Assembly (NCBI RefSeq): GCF_050920415.1
Contig: NZ_CP169309.1
Length of the DNA: 64,000 nt
Source of the DNA: Escherichia coli
GTDB lineage: Bacteria; Pseudomonadota; Gammaproteobacteria; Enterobacterales; Enterobacteriaceae
Reading direction: 5' to 3' (one strand)
Part shown: piece by piece, positions 24,787-28,552 of the stretch
Layout: each line of letters opens with the position of its first letter
Position numbering within the stretch: position 1 is the stretch's first letter
The notes under the pieces: generated by a model
What the model was told of the DNA's origin: nothing
Seen by the model: the letters and a program-made list of their open reading frames with translations, nothing else
Databases searched by the model: none
Translations under genes and position numbers: made by a program

Positions 24787-26070
24787 TTAGTCTTTAGCTG
24801 TTGCATTTTGTTTATGAAACAGTTCACGGAACACCGGATAAATATCATCCTGGTCGCGGATATGCTGCATCGCAAAATTGTCGAAAGTAGATTGCAGATG
24901 TTCATATTCTCGCCACAGTGTCTGATGAGCGCGACGGGTAATTTCGATATAGCTGTAATAACGAACAACGGGCAATAATTTTTTCGCCAGGATTTCATGG
25001 CAAAGTGGAGAGTCATCGGCCCAGTTATCGCCGTCCGATGCTTGTGCCGCGTAAATATTCCATTGCGCCGGGTTATAACGCTCTTTCACCACCTCATCCA
25101 TCAGTTTCAGGGCGCTGGAAACAATGGTACCGCCAGTTTCCTGTGAGTAGAAAAACTCATGTTCATCGACTTCTTTCGCCTGGGTATGGTGCCGGATGTA
25201 AACGACTTCCACGTTCTTATACGTTCTGCTAAGGAACAGATACAGCAGAATATAAAAACGCTTAGCCATATCTTTAGTGGACTGATCCATTGAACCCGAA
25301 ACGTCCATCAGGCAAAACATCACTGCCTGGCTGGAGGGATCGGGTCGTTTTTCGTAGTTCTTGTATCGTAAATCGAAGGTGTCAATAAAAGGGACGCGTT
25401 CAATTTTGGCACGTAATTCTGCAATTTCTTTGCGCAGACGTTCCTCTTCCAGCAGTTGCGCAGGCTCACTGTTGCTGATGATGGCCAAATTCTCTTCCAG
25501 CGCATGAAGTTCCCGCCGCTTGCCCGCCGTCATGGCTGTGCGTCGCGCCAGTGAGTTCTGCAATGAACGCACAACGCTGATATTGGCAGGAACGCCGTTA
25601 GCGGTATAACCCGCCCGATGCGTTTTATATTCGGTCAGCTGGCGTTGTTGGTTTTGTTTCAGATTCGGTAAGGCCAAATCTTCAAAGAGCAGATCAAGAT
25701 ACTCATCTTTCGAAATCTGAAAGACAAATTCATCCTGACCTTCACCATCCTGGCTGGCCTGGCCCTGACCACTGCCGGAACCACCGCCGCCGCCCTGGGG
25801 GCGTTCAATGCGGTCGTTCTGGACGAAATGGTCATTGCCCGGATGAACGCGGTGGCGCAGGCCGCCACGTCCCTGATGAAACATCGGTTCGCTAATATCT
25901 TCCGTTGGAATGGATACGGACTCGCCGCTGTCGACGTCAGTCACCGAACGCTTATTAATGGCCTCGGAGATCGACTGTTTAATTTGCGCTTTATAACGGC
26001 GTAAAAAACGCTGGCGATTCACCATGCTTTTGTTTTTGCCGTTCAGACGCCGGTCAATAAACCAGGTCAT
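24787..26070 (-). CDS. yeaH: DUF444 protein YeaH (partner of PrkA-type kinase YeaG)
   Basis: ORF track 427 aa; Gly-rich low-complexity segment; co-directional downstream of yeaG. Confidence 0.9.
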
Positions 26071-26182
26071 ATGCCCCCCGTACTACATTTGCCAACTGTT
26101 TGCTACGCCTGTGTTGCCGCTTCTCTGGCCCACGGTTCGCTGTCGTTGTAGGCCCGGTAGCATGCGTACCGGGCCATGGTTG

Positions 26183-28117
26183 TTAAGACGATTTACGTAC
26201 GCGCAAATACCATTCGCACAGTAAACGCACCTGTTTACGGGTGTAGCCTTTTTCCATCATACGGTCGACAAAATCGTCGTGTTTCTTCTGCTCGTCGGTT
26301 GACGTTTTGGCGTTAAACGAAATAACTGGCAACAGCTCCTCGGTATTAGAGAACATTTTCTTCTCAATAACCGTGCGCAGTTTTTCATAGCTGGTCCAGT
26401 TCGGATTGCGTCCGCTGTTATTCGCTCTGGCGCGCAGTACGAAGTTGACAATCTCGTTGCGGAAATCTTTTGGATTACTGATCCCCGCCGGTTTCTCAAT
26501 TTTCTCCAGCTCAGCGTTGAGAGATTCGCGGTCAAATAGCTGCCCGGTATCCGGGTCGCGATACTCCTGATCCTGAATCCAGAAATCTGCATACGTGACA
26601 TAACGGTCAAAAATGTTTTGTCCATATTCAGAATAGGATTCAAGATACGCAGTCTGAATCTCTTTACCGATAAACTCAGCATATTTCGGAATCAAGTAAC
26701 CTTTCAGGAACTCGAGATAACGCTCAGCCTGCTCCTGAGGGAACTGCTCGCGCTCGATCTGCTGTTCCAGGACGTAGAACAGATGGACCGGGTTTGCCGC
26801 CACTTCTACATGATCGAAGTTGAACACGCGAGAGAGGATCTTAAACGCAAAACGCGTGGACAGACCGTTCATCCCTTCATCAACGCCTGCGTAGTCACGA
26901 TATTCCTGATACGACTTGGCTTTCGGATCGGTGTCTTTCAGACTTTCGCCATCATAAACCCGCATCTTCGAATAAATGCTGGAGTTTTCCGGCTCTTTCA
27001 GACGCGAAAGAATGGAAAAACGAGACAGCGTTTCCAGCGTGCCAGGTGCGCAGGGGGCGTGAGTCAGTTCACTGTGATTAAGCAATTTCTCGTAGATTTT
27101 GATCTCTTCGGAAATACGCAAGCAATATGGCACCTTCACGATATAAACACGATCGAGGAAGGCTTCGTTGTTCTTGTTATTACGGAAAGTGACCCATTCG
27201 GATTCGTTCGAATGGGCGAGAATAATCCCGTTAAACGGCAAGGCGGAGATACCTTCCGTCCCGTTGTAGTTACCTTCCTGAGTGGCGGTTAACAGGGGAT
27301 GCAGCACTTTAATCGGTGCTTTAAACATCTCGACAAACTCCATGATCCCCTGGTTGGCGCGGCATAGTGCACCGGAATATCCGTAGGCGTCTGGATCGTT
27401 CTGCGCGTAGTGTTCGAGTTTACGGATATCGACTTTCCCTACCAGCGCTGAGATGTCCTGGTTGTTCTCATCGCCAGGTTCCGTTTTGGCGATAGCAATT
27501 TGTTGCAGAATTGACGGCCAGACCTTTACCACCCGGAACTTAGTAATATCGCCACCAAATTCATGCAGGCGTTTTGCTGCCCACGGCGACATGATGGTGC
27601 CAAGATAGCGTCGAGGAATGCCATACTCTTTTTCCAGAATCTGCGCATCTTCTTGCGGATTGAAAAGACAGAACGGATGATCGTTGACCGGGCTCCGCTC
27701 ACCGTTAGCGCTTAATACATAGATCGGCACGAGCTGCATTAATGATTTCAGTCGCTCAGCAAGCGATGATTTACCCCCACCCACAGGCCCCAGCAGATAC
27801 AGGATTTGTTTCTTCTCCTCCAGCCCCTGAGCCGCGTGTTTCAGATAAGAGACAATCTGTTCAATCGCGTCTTCCATGCCGTAAAACTCTTCAAAGGCCG
27901 GGTAACGTGCAATGACCCGGTTAGAAAAGAGTCGAGAAAGTCTGGGTTCCTGGGCTGTATCGACCATGACAGGCTCACCGATAGCCATCAATAGCCGCTC
28001 AGCCGCGTTGGCATAAGCACTGCGATCTTGCCGACAAGTGGTAAGAAACTCCTGCAGTGTGAACTCTTCGTCCTTGGCAGCTTCATATCGCTGGCGATAG
28101 TGATCGAATATATTCAT
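26183..28117 (-). CDS. yeaG: PrkA-family serine protein kinase YeaG
   Basis: ORF track 644 aa; Walker A GPVGGGKSS; sigma54-type promoter upstream. Confidence 0.9.
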   Translation of the reverse strand: MNIFDHYRQRYEAAKDEEFTLQEFLTTCRQDRSAYANAAERLLMAIGEPVMVDTAQEPRLSRLFSNRVIARYPAFEEFYGMEDAIEQIVSYLKHAAQGLEEKKQILYLLGPVGGGKSSLAERLKSLMQLVPIYVLSANGERSPVNDHPFCLFNPQEDAQILEKEYGIPRRYLGTIMSPWAAKRLHEFGGDITKFRVVKVWPSILQQIAIAKTEPGDENNQDISALVGKVDIRKLEHYAQNDPDAYGYSGALCRANQGIMEFVEMFKAPIKVLHPLLTATQEGNYNGTEGISALPFNGIILAHSNESEWVTFRNNKNNEAFLDRVYIVKVPYCLRISEEIKIYEKLLNHSELTHAPCAPGTLETLSRFSILSRLKEPENSSIYSKMRVYDGESLKDTDPKAKSYQEYRDYAGVDEGMNGLSTRFAFKILSRVFNFDHVEVAANPVHLFYVLEQQIEREQFPQEQAERYLEFLKGYLIPKYAEFIGKEIQTAYLESYSEYGQNIFDRYVTYADFWIQDQEYRDPDTGQLFDRESLNAELEKIEKPAGISNPKDFRNEIVNFVLRARANNSGRNPNWTSYEKLRTVIEKKMFSNTEELLPVISFNAKTSTDEQKKHDDFVDRMMEKGYTRKQVRLLCEWYLRVRKSS

Positions 28118-28220
28118 GGTATGCCGTCCTTTCGTTTTTTAGCACAGGTTAAGAGCCGTTCATATGAATAGTAGAGGCTCCCGGAAGAGGTAAACTGAAC
28201 GACGTCTCTTGCTAAAACAC

Positions 28221-28236
28221 AGCAACTCTCATGCCA
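28221..28236 (-). promoter_or_regulatory. sigma54 (-24/-12) promoter TGGCATG-N4-TTGCT reading toward yeaG
   Basis: Reverse strand reads TGGCATGAGAGTTGCT, matching TGGCACG-N4-TTGCW; about 100 nt upstream of yeaG start. Confidence 0.55.
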
Positions 28237-28552
28237 TTTTATCGACGATGAGAACAACGTGCCCGGTGATACACCTTCAAAATTAAGCGTAGATGGCAAA
28301 TGGAAAACTTGCCTGCACGGCTTTCTTAATTTCAATGGCATATCAACAACTCATCCATAAAATTTGCATAATTAATGTAAAGACCAGGGTCGCCAGTAAC
28401 GCGTAATTCATTTGGCTGTAAGCGTGGTGTCATCTGCGTCAGGAAAATTAAACAGTTACTTTAAAAAATGAAAACGTAAAAAGGTTGGGTTTCGATGTAT
28501 TGACGGGTAAACTTTGTCGCCCGCTAAACATTTGTTTAAGGAATGATTAATT

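Follow-up and report, generated by a model that had tools for sequence, protein, structure and literature searches.

The yeaG-yeaH operon

We analyzed the yeaG-yeaH region within a 64-kb stretch of Escherichia coli DNA, referred to here as the window. The product of yeaG matches the Pfam families AAA_PrkA (1e-187) and PrkA (9e-71), that of yeaH matches DUF444 (4e-191), and RefSeq gives identical DNA the names yeaG and yeaH. The locus is the well-studied Escherichia yeaG-yeaH starvation operon, whose products act as a joint 'metabolic brake' in nitrogen-starved E. coli; YeaH is known from the literature to be made and needed, and the phenotype published for yeaG/yeaH concerns the lag before growth resumes after 24 h without nitrogen. 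An earlier note on this DNA had recognized the spacer between the two genes, giving its length as 113 bp; it is 112 nt long. Since a promoter scan found no sigma70-like promoter in the spacer, yeaH appears to depend on read-through. The conserved block that ends the spacer is kept as far as Serratia, Brenneria, and Rahnella, where it makes up almost the entire spacer. An Rfam scan of 24400-28700 returned nothing relevant, its sole match being a snoRNA hit within yeaH that is attributable to chance (E = 0.5). All features are listed in Table 1.

Table 1. Features of the yeaG-yeaH region, in window coordinates.
Feature	Position	Strand	Description and basis
Upstream block GATGAGTTGTTGATATGCCATTGAAATT	28328..28355	-	Possible activator or IHF site; alignment A2
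TCTACGCTTAA	28283..28293	-	Candidate -10 of the RpoS-dependent promoter; near-invariant block, alignment A2
Sigma54 -24/-12 element TGGCATGAGAGTTGCT	28221..28236	-	Sequence, ChIP identity, conservation
SdsR sRNA pairing site CCTGTGCTAA	28139..28148	-	yeaG 5' UTR, -31..-22; PMC10954441
yeaG	28117..26183	-	PrkA-type AAA+/Ser kinase, 644 aa; ORF, Pfam, RefSeq
Hairpin GGCCCGGUA-CGCAUGC-UACCGGGCC	26151..26175	-	iREP sense in the mRNA; sequence, folding
GTAG tetranucleotide of REP	26148..26151	+	CUAC in the mRNA, immediately 3' of the stem
Position equivalent to K-12 Term-seq 3' ends	26145..26146	-	5-6 nt after the stem
Putative second-REP remnant (GTGGGCCAGAGAAG/CGGCA)	26115..26133	-	11 nt deleted; alignment to Escherichia sp. 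L002
Block before the yeaH start	26071..26098	-	G-rich Shine-Dalgarno CAGTTGGCAAATGTAGTACGGGGGGCAT; conserved
yeaH	26070..24787	-	DUF444 protein, 427 aa; ORF, Pfam, RefSeq
Terminator-like hairpin and T-run after yeaH	24754..24782	-	Consensus scan only

Promoters and 5' UTR of yeaG

The earlier note had proposed a -24/-12 element upstream of yeaG, consistent with nitrogen-starvation control. The element, TGGCATGAGAGTTGCT, lies exactly where it had been placed (28236..28221, minus strand) and agrees with TGGCACG-N4-TTGCW at 15 of 16 positions, with the correct spacing. Matches of this kind occur three times in the 64-kb window against 1.15 expected; taken by itself, the motif therefore carries little weight. 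The GG and GC elements of the site are conserved in 24 Enterobacterales loci; the K-12 sigma54 ChIP-seq site OS18 is an identical 17-mer, 93 nt from yeaG; the same site is bound by sigma54 in Salmonella (ChIP-chip); and an NtrC ChIP-seq peak has been published at the yeaG promoter. With the published RpoN and RpoS promoters, these data bear out the proposed sigma54 and nitrogen control, and the promoter half of the observation is already published knowledge. Transcription probably starts near 28210, which would give a 93-nt 5' UTR. The search for upstream NtrC sites that the earlier note suggested as a check found none: scanning 28237-28560 for 17-mers with at most three mismatches to the NtrC consensus gave no match, and the same scan recovered the astC sites within the window.

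Upstream of this element, TCTACGCTTAA fits KCTAYRCTTAA, the extended -10 consensus of sigmaS. The block GATGAGTTGTTGATATGCCATTGAAATT, farther upstream, is conserved over 13 genera in alignment A2. A second, RpoS-dependent promoter has been reported for the operon in addition to the RpoN promoter (PMC10954441; RpoS is also reported in work on Salmonella). In the 5' UTR, the TGTGCT of the SdsR pairing site is invariant (alignment A2). SdsR controls YeaG and YeaH levels post-transcriptionally, and an sdsR mutant has 1.8-fold more YeaG and 2.1-fold more YeaH (PMC10954441); both rise together, which shows coupling of the two proteins and not independent tuning.

A stable hairpin follows the yeaG stop codon

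The palindrome that had been described in the spacer is present, but its details differ: the arms are 9 bp long (GGCCCGGTA / TACCGGGCC), and the centre on the plus strand is the 7-nt GCATGCG rather than GCATGC. In the mRNA, this gives a perfect 9-bp stem with a 7-nt loop and no bulge, beginning 7 nt 3' of the yeaG stop codon (TAA). Folded alone, the hairpin has a free energy of -17 to -18 kcal/mol (z = -3.6 versus shuffles). Perfect stems of at least 9 bp with loops of 3-9 nt are rare: the window yields 23 overlapping matches, corresponding to about 14 sites, and shuffled sequence yields 1.85. A 132-nt stretch containing the whole spacer folds no better than shuffles (z = +0.7), and the hairpin is therefore the only structured part. 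We also considered a riboswitch-like or alternative-pairing attenuator, which is unlikely since the whole-spacer fold has no structure beyond the hairpin. By eye, pairing of only about 4 bp could be made out between the Shine-Dalgarno sequence of yeaH and an arm of the hairpin.

The hairpin resembles a decayed REP

Judged by its sequence, the hairpin is a fossil REP, the half that has survived from an ancient REP pair (BIME). Its GTAG tetranucleotide, the defining feature of REPs (PMC8266576), is retained, as is the GCCCGGT/ACCGGGC lower stem of the GCCCGG-type REP, identical to the family consensus; the hairpin and the multicopy family GTAGGCCCGGTAAGCGcAGCGCCaCCGGGC begin with the same 12 nt (GTAGGCCCGGTA) and end with the same 7 nt. 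The 16-mer GTAGGCCCGGYAAGCG occurs in 93 copies at 80 metagenomic loci (745 kb of unrelated contigs), with several copies per contig and unrelated flanks, and none of the 93 lies beside yeaG. The AA bulge and GCGC upper stem, present in the orthologues L004, L005, L008, and L010, are missing from the Escherichia hairpin, which has A-T pairing and the 7-nt loop instead. The conserved AA/GC mismatch bulge of the E. coli y, z1, and z2 REPs, a requirement according to PMC8266576, is likewise absent from the perfect stem. The REP/BIME origin of the palindrome had been overlooked in the earlier note.

Searching 5424 genomes (E <= 10) placed the hairpin at one location per genome, and a y-type REP used as control was found at a median of 13 places per E. 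coli genome. The GCCCGG-type family is still multicopy in other enterobacteria but does not occur as dispersed copies in E. coli. A strict REP finder detected no canonical y or z REP anywhere in the 64-kb window. The equivalent of the second REP in Escherichia sp. L002 is GTAGGCCGGATAAGCGAAGCGCATCCGGCA, a y-type sequence to which the multicopy E. coli figure of 13 places applies. The inverted pair is intact in L002, L004, L005, L006, and L010, and the second REP of the window is a remnant with the 11-nt deletion; from these alignments, E. coli appears to have lost it while sister genera keep the full pair at the same position. The K-12 RefSeq record annotates no REP in the yeaG-yeaH spacer and none at malE-malF, where one is expected; because that REP is also unannotated, the silence of RefSeq is uninformative. 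The portion of the RepRanger supplement files available to us does not mention yeaG.

Conservation of the hairpin

GCCCGG...CCGGGC hairpins with free energies of -15 to -22 kcal/mol occur at the orthologous position in 12 Enterobacteriaceae sequences from eight genera, starting 7-11 nt after the yeaG stop codon in all 12 and followed by CTACAA in most. Full-length GCCCGG-type REPs are found at this position in Enterobacter, Citrobacter, Pseudescherichia, and others. The first REP (REP1) is kept in all 12 sequences, and the inverted, y-type second REP (REP2) has been lost in about half. A search for the best single hairpin often chose long-range REP1-REP2 pairings, and only its presence/absence trend was used.

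Several observations point to constraint at the level of the RNA. Within the stem, pair 7 covaries (TA/CG/TG/GT), and six of the nine pairs are invariant, so that covariation offers thin support, resting on pairs 7-8 and one lineage. In E. albertii, G.U pairs allow the hairpin to form on the yeaG-sense strand and not on the other (-17.4 versus -6.7 kcal/mol). Among E. coli variants, which come from the weak end of the 5424-genome search, the loop and flanks change and an 8-bp core is constant. Dickeya, Brenneria, Rahnella, Aeromonas, and Rheinheimera have hairpin-free spacers of 16-40 nt; since such spacers are found in many relatives, the operon works without the hairpin. The spacers of other lineages have acquired ERIC elements and unrelated palindromes.

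A K-12 RNA 3' end lies just past the hairpin

Term-seq of K-12 (Adams 2021) places dominant 3' ends, classed as 'primary yeaG', at 1868879 (LB OD 2.0) and 1868880 (M63), and the stem and its 3' flank are identical in K-12 and the window. The yeaG 3' end was detected in LB OD 2.0 and M63 and not in LB 0.4, with low read numbers (about 760-1200); a yeaH 3' end is not listed. The position of this end supports the earlier suggestion that the hairpin acts as a processing or stability element. RNA 3' ends just past U-less stem-loops are a signature of exonuclease trimming (PMC6061677), and REPs inside operons have been reported to stabilize the upstream message and to cause partial termination (2026 preprint). 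A literature search for a connection between ProQ and yeaG turned up nothing usable, and a preprint on cocultures contained no figures comparing yeaG with yeaH.

We think it probable, with moderate confidence, that the REP-fossil hairpin serves as an exonuclease barrier within the yeaGH operon, an explanation that builds on the observed sequence anatomy, orthology, repeat-family relationship, and K-12 RNA 3' end. Transcription comes from the published NtrC-activated sigma54 promoter and the published RpoS-dependent promoter just upstream. Replacement of the internal bulge and upper stem has left the GCCCGG-type REP remnant with a perfect 9-bp stem, which would fold in the yeaG-sense RNA once transcribed. 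3'-to-5' exonucleases (PNPase, RNase II) entering downstream would then halt a few nucleotides past the hairpin, leaving a stable RNA whose 3' end lies shortly past yeaG, with yeaH carried by unprocessed read-through transcripts. The 3' end would thus be made by exonuclease blocking rather than by termination, and more yeaG than yeaH message would result; possibly, the hairpin is also a weak attenuator, the other role proposed in the earlier note, and it may tune the YeaG:YeaH ratio. Counted against the barrier model were the low Term-seq read numbers, the thin covariation, the neutral persistence possible for REP-derived hairpins, the many relatives whose spacers have no hairpin, and the joint rise of YeaG and YeaH in the sdsR mutant.

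Alternative explanations

A discrete 3' end 5-6 nt past the stem could also arise at a partial terminator or attenuator, where polymerase stops at or shortly after the hairpin, through Rho or through weak U-less intrinsic termination, and yeaH transcription is thereby limited. REP325 in yjdMN has been reported to be a partly Rho-dependent terminator, and Rho could load onto the spacer RNA, 112 nt that are untranslated. We consider this rather unlikely: the stem is followed on the yeaG strand by UACAACGACAG, with no U-tract, and a terminator scan flags the hairpin only on the opposite strand; the 50 nt downstream (C 14 / G 16) lack a rut-like C>G bias; no Rho region is listed here in file 2 of Adams 2021, although yeaG was barely expressed in that condition; and YeaH is produced. 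An effect on translation, in which a ribosome at the yeaG stop codon must unwind the hairpin and stalls, with trans-translation lowering YeaG, seems improbable to us. It would agree with the reported rule that REPs lying no more than 15 nt from a stop codon cause stalling and trans-translation (PMC12306157), a distance that holds for the Escherichia stem and for all 12 orthologues, but the close spacing may only mark the point of REP insertion, and stalling does not account for the RNA 3' end.

The hairpin might instead be a harmless dead REP, its RNA 3' end incidental and without selected effect on YeaG or YeaH, as its single copy, the lack of the bulge on which the E. coli REP transposase depends, the uptake of ERIC elements and unrelated palindromes by spacers elsewhere, and the many relatives with hairpin-free spacers would all allow. 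We give this a minor but appreciable chance, since REP1 persists in every one of the 12 sequences against the loss of REP2 in about half, compensatory and G.U changes have preserved the stem, the sense-strand-only pairing of E. albertii among them, and the 8-bp core does not vary among the weak-end E. coli variants. Although GTAG with a palindrome is the type of substrate used by TnpA-REP (PMC8266576), a function at the DNA level, as a target of TnpA-REP, gyrase, HU, or IHF or in chromosome structure, is very improbable: the hairpin lacks the bulge that the E. coli enzyme requires (PMC8266576), the E. albertii version is unpaired on the REP (GTAG) strand, and a model REP had no role in chromosome compaction (2026 preprint).

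Implications

It is conceivable, if doubtful, that its RNA hairpin is the reason why this copy was retained once the GCCCGG-type family had disappeared from Escherichia, and that it was co-opted to make a separate stable yeaG transcript, perhaps slowing YeaG termination. If true, starving cells would make the kinase YeaG and its partner YeaH in a fixed ratio on which selection can act, and the locus would be a dated case of a selfish repeat turned operon-internal regulator, conserved in at least eight enterobacterial genera. A hairpin that forms 3' ends would be a second, undiscussed layer of control beside SdsR and could uncouple the amounts of YeaG and YeaH. The locus also provides a neat example, open to dating, of a REP that has outlasted the repeat family to which it belongs. 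Neither point alters what is understood about sigma54 control, REPs, or mRNA decay. The operon is unexceptional apart from one minor novelty, a decayed REP marking where many yeaG transcripts end, and the main value lies in improving the annotation of a model operon that is widely used.

Comparison with known systems

Like the NtrC-dependent sigma54 promoters glnAp2, astC, and nac, the yeaG promoter has -24 GG and -12 GC elements, in vivo binding of sigma54 and NtrC, and induction by nitrogen starvation; unlike them, it has no recognizable consensus NtrC site and stands in tandem with an RpoS-dependent promoter. The hairpin shares with intrinsic (Rho-independent) terminators a GC-rich stem after a stop codon and differs from them in having no U-tract on the yeaG strand. 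Its two ends, GTAGGCCCGGTA and ACCGGGC, are identical to those of the GCCCGG-type family, whereas the middle (bulge, GCGC upper stem, and loop) is replaced by GCATGCG and the element is not dispersed in E. coli. Protective 3' stem-loops (Dar & Sorek 2018) are similarly stable and U-less, with a 3' end a few nucleotides downstream, as in the K-12 data, but the yeaG hairpin is operon-internal rather than terminal and no C>G bias follows it. It departs from operon-internal REP/BIMEs such as the malE-malF REP and REP325 in yjdMN in being single-copy in E. coli, with a perfect 9-bp stem, no AA/GC bulge, and no upper stem, in not being of y, z1, or z2 type, and in the decay of its second REP. With these last elements it nevertheless shares a GC-rich extragenic palindrome and GTAG between co-transcribed genes, transcription with an RNA 3' end just downstream, and, in sister species, an inverted pair.

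Locus and yeaG promoter

The window is Escherichia chromosome; two E. coli genomes match the 3961-nt locus at 100% identity and about 5400 more at 95-99%, all of them annotated mipA / yeaG / yeaH / cdgI. Of 5425 complete E. coli genomes, just 15 reach at least 99% identity across 24600-28560 (the remainder lie at 95-99%), which places the window in an uncommon lineage. Among the 80 fetched loci (L001-L080), the amino-acid identity of Escherichia YeaG to that of Vibrio, Shewanella or Pseudoalteromonas is 82-86%, an extraordinary degree of conservation, and YeaH is conserved far less (59-77%).

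Features of the yeaG-yeaH operon and the astC upstream region
Feature	Position	Strand	Description
yeaG	28117..26183	minus	644 aa, AAA_PrkA and PrkA domains
yeaG-yeaH spacer	26182..26071		
yeaH	26070..24787	minus	427 aa, DUF444
Intercistronic hairpin	26175..26151		yeaG strand: UAA-CAACCAU-GGCCCGGUA-CGCAUGC-UACCGGGCC-UACAACG
yeaG -24/-12 element	28236..28221	minus	TGGCATGAGAGTTGCT
astC sigma54 promoter	61831-61846	+	TGGCACGAACCCTGCA, identical to published sigma54 site OS17
Two tandem NtrC-like 17-mers, astC upstream	61596-61632	+	consensus scan

The -24/-12 element lies exactly where the earlier note had placed it. The bare sigma54 motif is weak evidence by itself, since the window holds three one-mismatch matches against 1.15 expected. 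Another sigma54-like motif, TGGCACGGTTTTTTCA (23270-23285, minus strand), lies inside the coding sequence of cdgI (yeaI); sigma54 sites within genes are frequent in E. coli. The K-12 sigma54 ChIP-seq site OS18 is the very same 17-mer, 93 nt upstream of yeaG (PMC4591121), the same sequence is bound by sigma54 in Salmonella (PMC3844500), and the yeaG promoter region is bound by NtrC and RNA polymerase in nitrogen-starved cells (PMC4066584; PMC4664914); RpoN-dependent and RpoS-dependent promoters have both been stated for the yeaGH operon (PMC10954441). This published sigma54 and NtrC binding bears out the proposed nitrogen/sigma54 control of yeaG, and the promoter half of the earlier note is correct and previously known. 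Across the 80 loci, the element is retained in 24 Enterobacterales, from Escherichia to Erwinia, Serratia, Dickeya and Pantoea, with GG and GC constant and the spacer between the -24 and -12 elements variable, and is absent from Yersinia, Edwardsiella, Vibrionales and Alteromonadales.

The suggested search for NtrC sites upstream of yeaG returned no match to the 17-mer consensus with up to three mismatches in 28237-28560; as a positive control, the scan recovered the tandem pair lying about 200 bp upstream of the astC promoter in the same window. The best match near yeaG, TGCACCACCGTAATGCA (29355-29371, two mismatches, palindromic), falls between mipA and yeaE, at a distance of 1.1 kb upstream from the yeaG promoter, and adjoins a hairpin at 29331-29355. 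In the alignment of yeaG upstream regions, TCTACGCTTAA (28293..28283), a candidate -10 element that fits the sigmaS consensus, is nearly invariant, the block 28355..28328 is conserved, and TGTGCT of the SdsR site is invariant. SdsR pairs with the yeaG 5' UTR at -31..-22 (PMC10954441). Upstream of this site, the 5' UTR segment CCGGGAGCCTCTACTATTCATATGAACGGCTCTTAACC (28150-28195, minus strand), strongly conserved across Enterobacteriaceae, holds a short inverted repeat, GAGCC/GGCTC.

The intercistronic hairpin and its ancestry

The palindrome reported in the yeaG-yeaH spacer stands with minor corrections: it has nine perfect pairs (seven G-C) and a 7-nt loop, begins 7 nt past the yeaG stop codon in a 112-nt spacer, and is followed by no U-run on the yeaG strand. 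Folded alone it reaches -18 kcal/mol (z = -3.6); the spacer folded whole is not unusual in structure. The window has about 14 sites with a perfect stem of this length, versus about two hits in shuffles.

On the + strand the hairpin reads GTAG-GCCCGGTA...TACCGGGC, and a palindrome with GTAG beside it is what characterizes a REP (PMC8266576). At the orthologous position, 7-11 nt past the yeaG stop, a hairpin is present in twelve sequences from eight genera (carriers include Escherichia, Citrobacter, Pseudescherichia, Pluralibacter, Superficieibacter, Enterobacter and one Enterobacteriaceae isolate), with an invariant GCCCGG/CCGGGC lower stem, energies of -15 to -22 kcal/mol and usually CTACAA thereafter. 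Several are full-length, GTAGGCCCGG(C/T)AAGCG...CGCC(A/G)CCGGGC, and are followed by a second element in opposite orientation, GTAGGCCGGATAAGCG...CATCCGGC, the pair forming a BIME. The second element, found at 72,169 places in E. coli (median 13 per genome), is a true E. coli REP; at this locus in E. coli and E. albertii it is a remnant with an 11-nt deletion. The first REP type forms no family in E. coli genomes, where the window hairpin sequence is strictly single-copy. In metagenomic contigs, the 16-mer GTAGGCCCGGYAAGCG is nonetheless dispersed and multicopy: 745 kb hold 93 occurrences, a single contig having up to six or more, their flanks are unrelated and none of the 93 lies beside yeaG. 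The window hairpin matches the consensus of this repeat, GTAGGCCCGGTAAGCGcAGCGCCaCCGGGC, over the 12 nt at its start and the 7 nt at its end; the bulge and upper stem are replaced. The GTAG and palindrome, the orthologous full members and the shared consensus ends together make the hairpin a fossil REP.

Many relatives have spacers of 16-40 nt without any hairpin, and the operon thus does not need one. Spacers of at least 46 nt each carry a hairpin of some unrelated sequence, and several different repeat families have been taken up. Those of Citrobacter sp. FP75 (L003, ~5010-5090) and Serratia grimesii (L018, ~4975-5025) hold an ERIC-like repeat (...GTGAATCCCAGGAGCGTACATAAGTACGTGACTGGGGTGAGCG...); with the unrelated hairpins, this makes the spacer a general landing site for palindromic repeats. 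The 28-nt block before the yeaH start, CAGTTGGCAAATGTAGTACGGGGGGCAT (26071-26098, minus strand), is conserved out to Serratia, Brenneria and Rahnella, whose spacers consist of little else; apart from the G-rich ribosome-binding site, no role is obvious for its TTGGCAA part.

Possible functions of the hairpin

K-12 Term-seq (Adams et al. 2021, PMC7815308) lists a dominant 3' end, classed 'primary, yeaG', at 1868879 in LB at OD 2.0 (1211 reads) and 1868880 in M63 (762 reads), absent in LB at OD 0.4; no yeaH 3' end is among the entries. By the printed flanking sequence and coordinates, it maps 5-6 nt past the last stem base (...CCGGGCCUACAA), and K-12 matches the window in stems and 3' flank, the differences being confined to the loop and a single base of the 5' flank. 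Of the roles envisaged in the earlier note, attenuator or processing/stability element, this 3' end supports the latter. At steady state, 3' ends placed right behind a stem-loop that lacks a U-run are the mark of PNPase/RNase II trimming RNA from 3' to 5' (PMC6061677), and our leading reading, somewhat probable, is that the hairpin would act as an exonuclease barrier yielding a stable yeaG-only RNA. An operon-internal REP has been described as a stabilizer and partly Rho-dependent terminator (2026 preprint). Direct attenuation at the hairpin is unlikely: the U-tract is missing after the stem, downstream C is about equal to G, and there is no Rho call, in a condition where none was possible. 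The spacer contains no sigma70-like promoter, and loss of SdsR raises YeaH along with YeaG (PMC10954441); yeaH is therefore expressed by read-through.

Ribosome stalling, expected of a REP within 15 nt of a stop codon (a rule summarized in PMC12306157), seems quite improbable. That the hairpin is a neutral relic is doubtful too, if the least so of these alternatives. Sequence variation fits RNA constraint, though thinly: among orthologues, stem pair 7 is T-A, C-G, U.G or G.U and pair 8 is A-T, G-C or G.U, and the E. albertii hairpin (L001, 4935-5047) has four G.U pairs and so folds on the yeaG-sense strand alone (-17.4 kcal/mol, against -6.7 on the other). Changes in the fetched E. coli variants are limited to the loop, flanks or outermost pair; all 12 sequences keep the first REP, and the second survives in about half. 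These readings, the exonuclease barrier included, are partly compatible, and our confidences in them do not add up to one.

The observations that began this analysis are confirmed with minor corrections. Compared with living E. coli REP types, the window hairpin departs on two defining tests, bulge and copy number, yet full REP members in other enterobacteria are its orthologues; it is a new, previously unremarked REP-derived intercistronic 3'-end hairpin of a kind already known.
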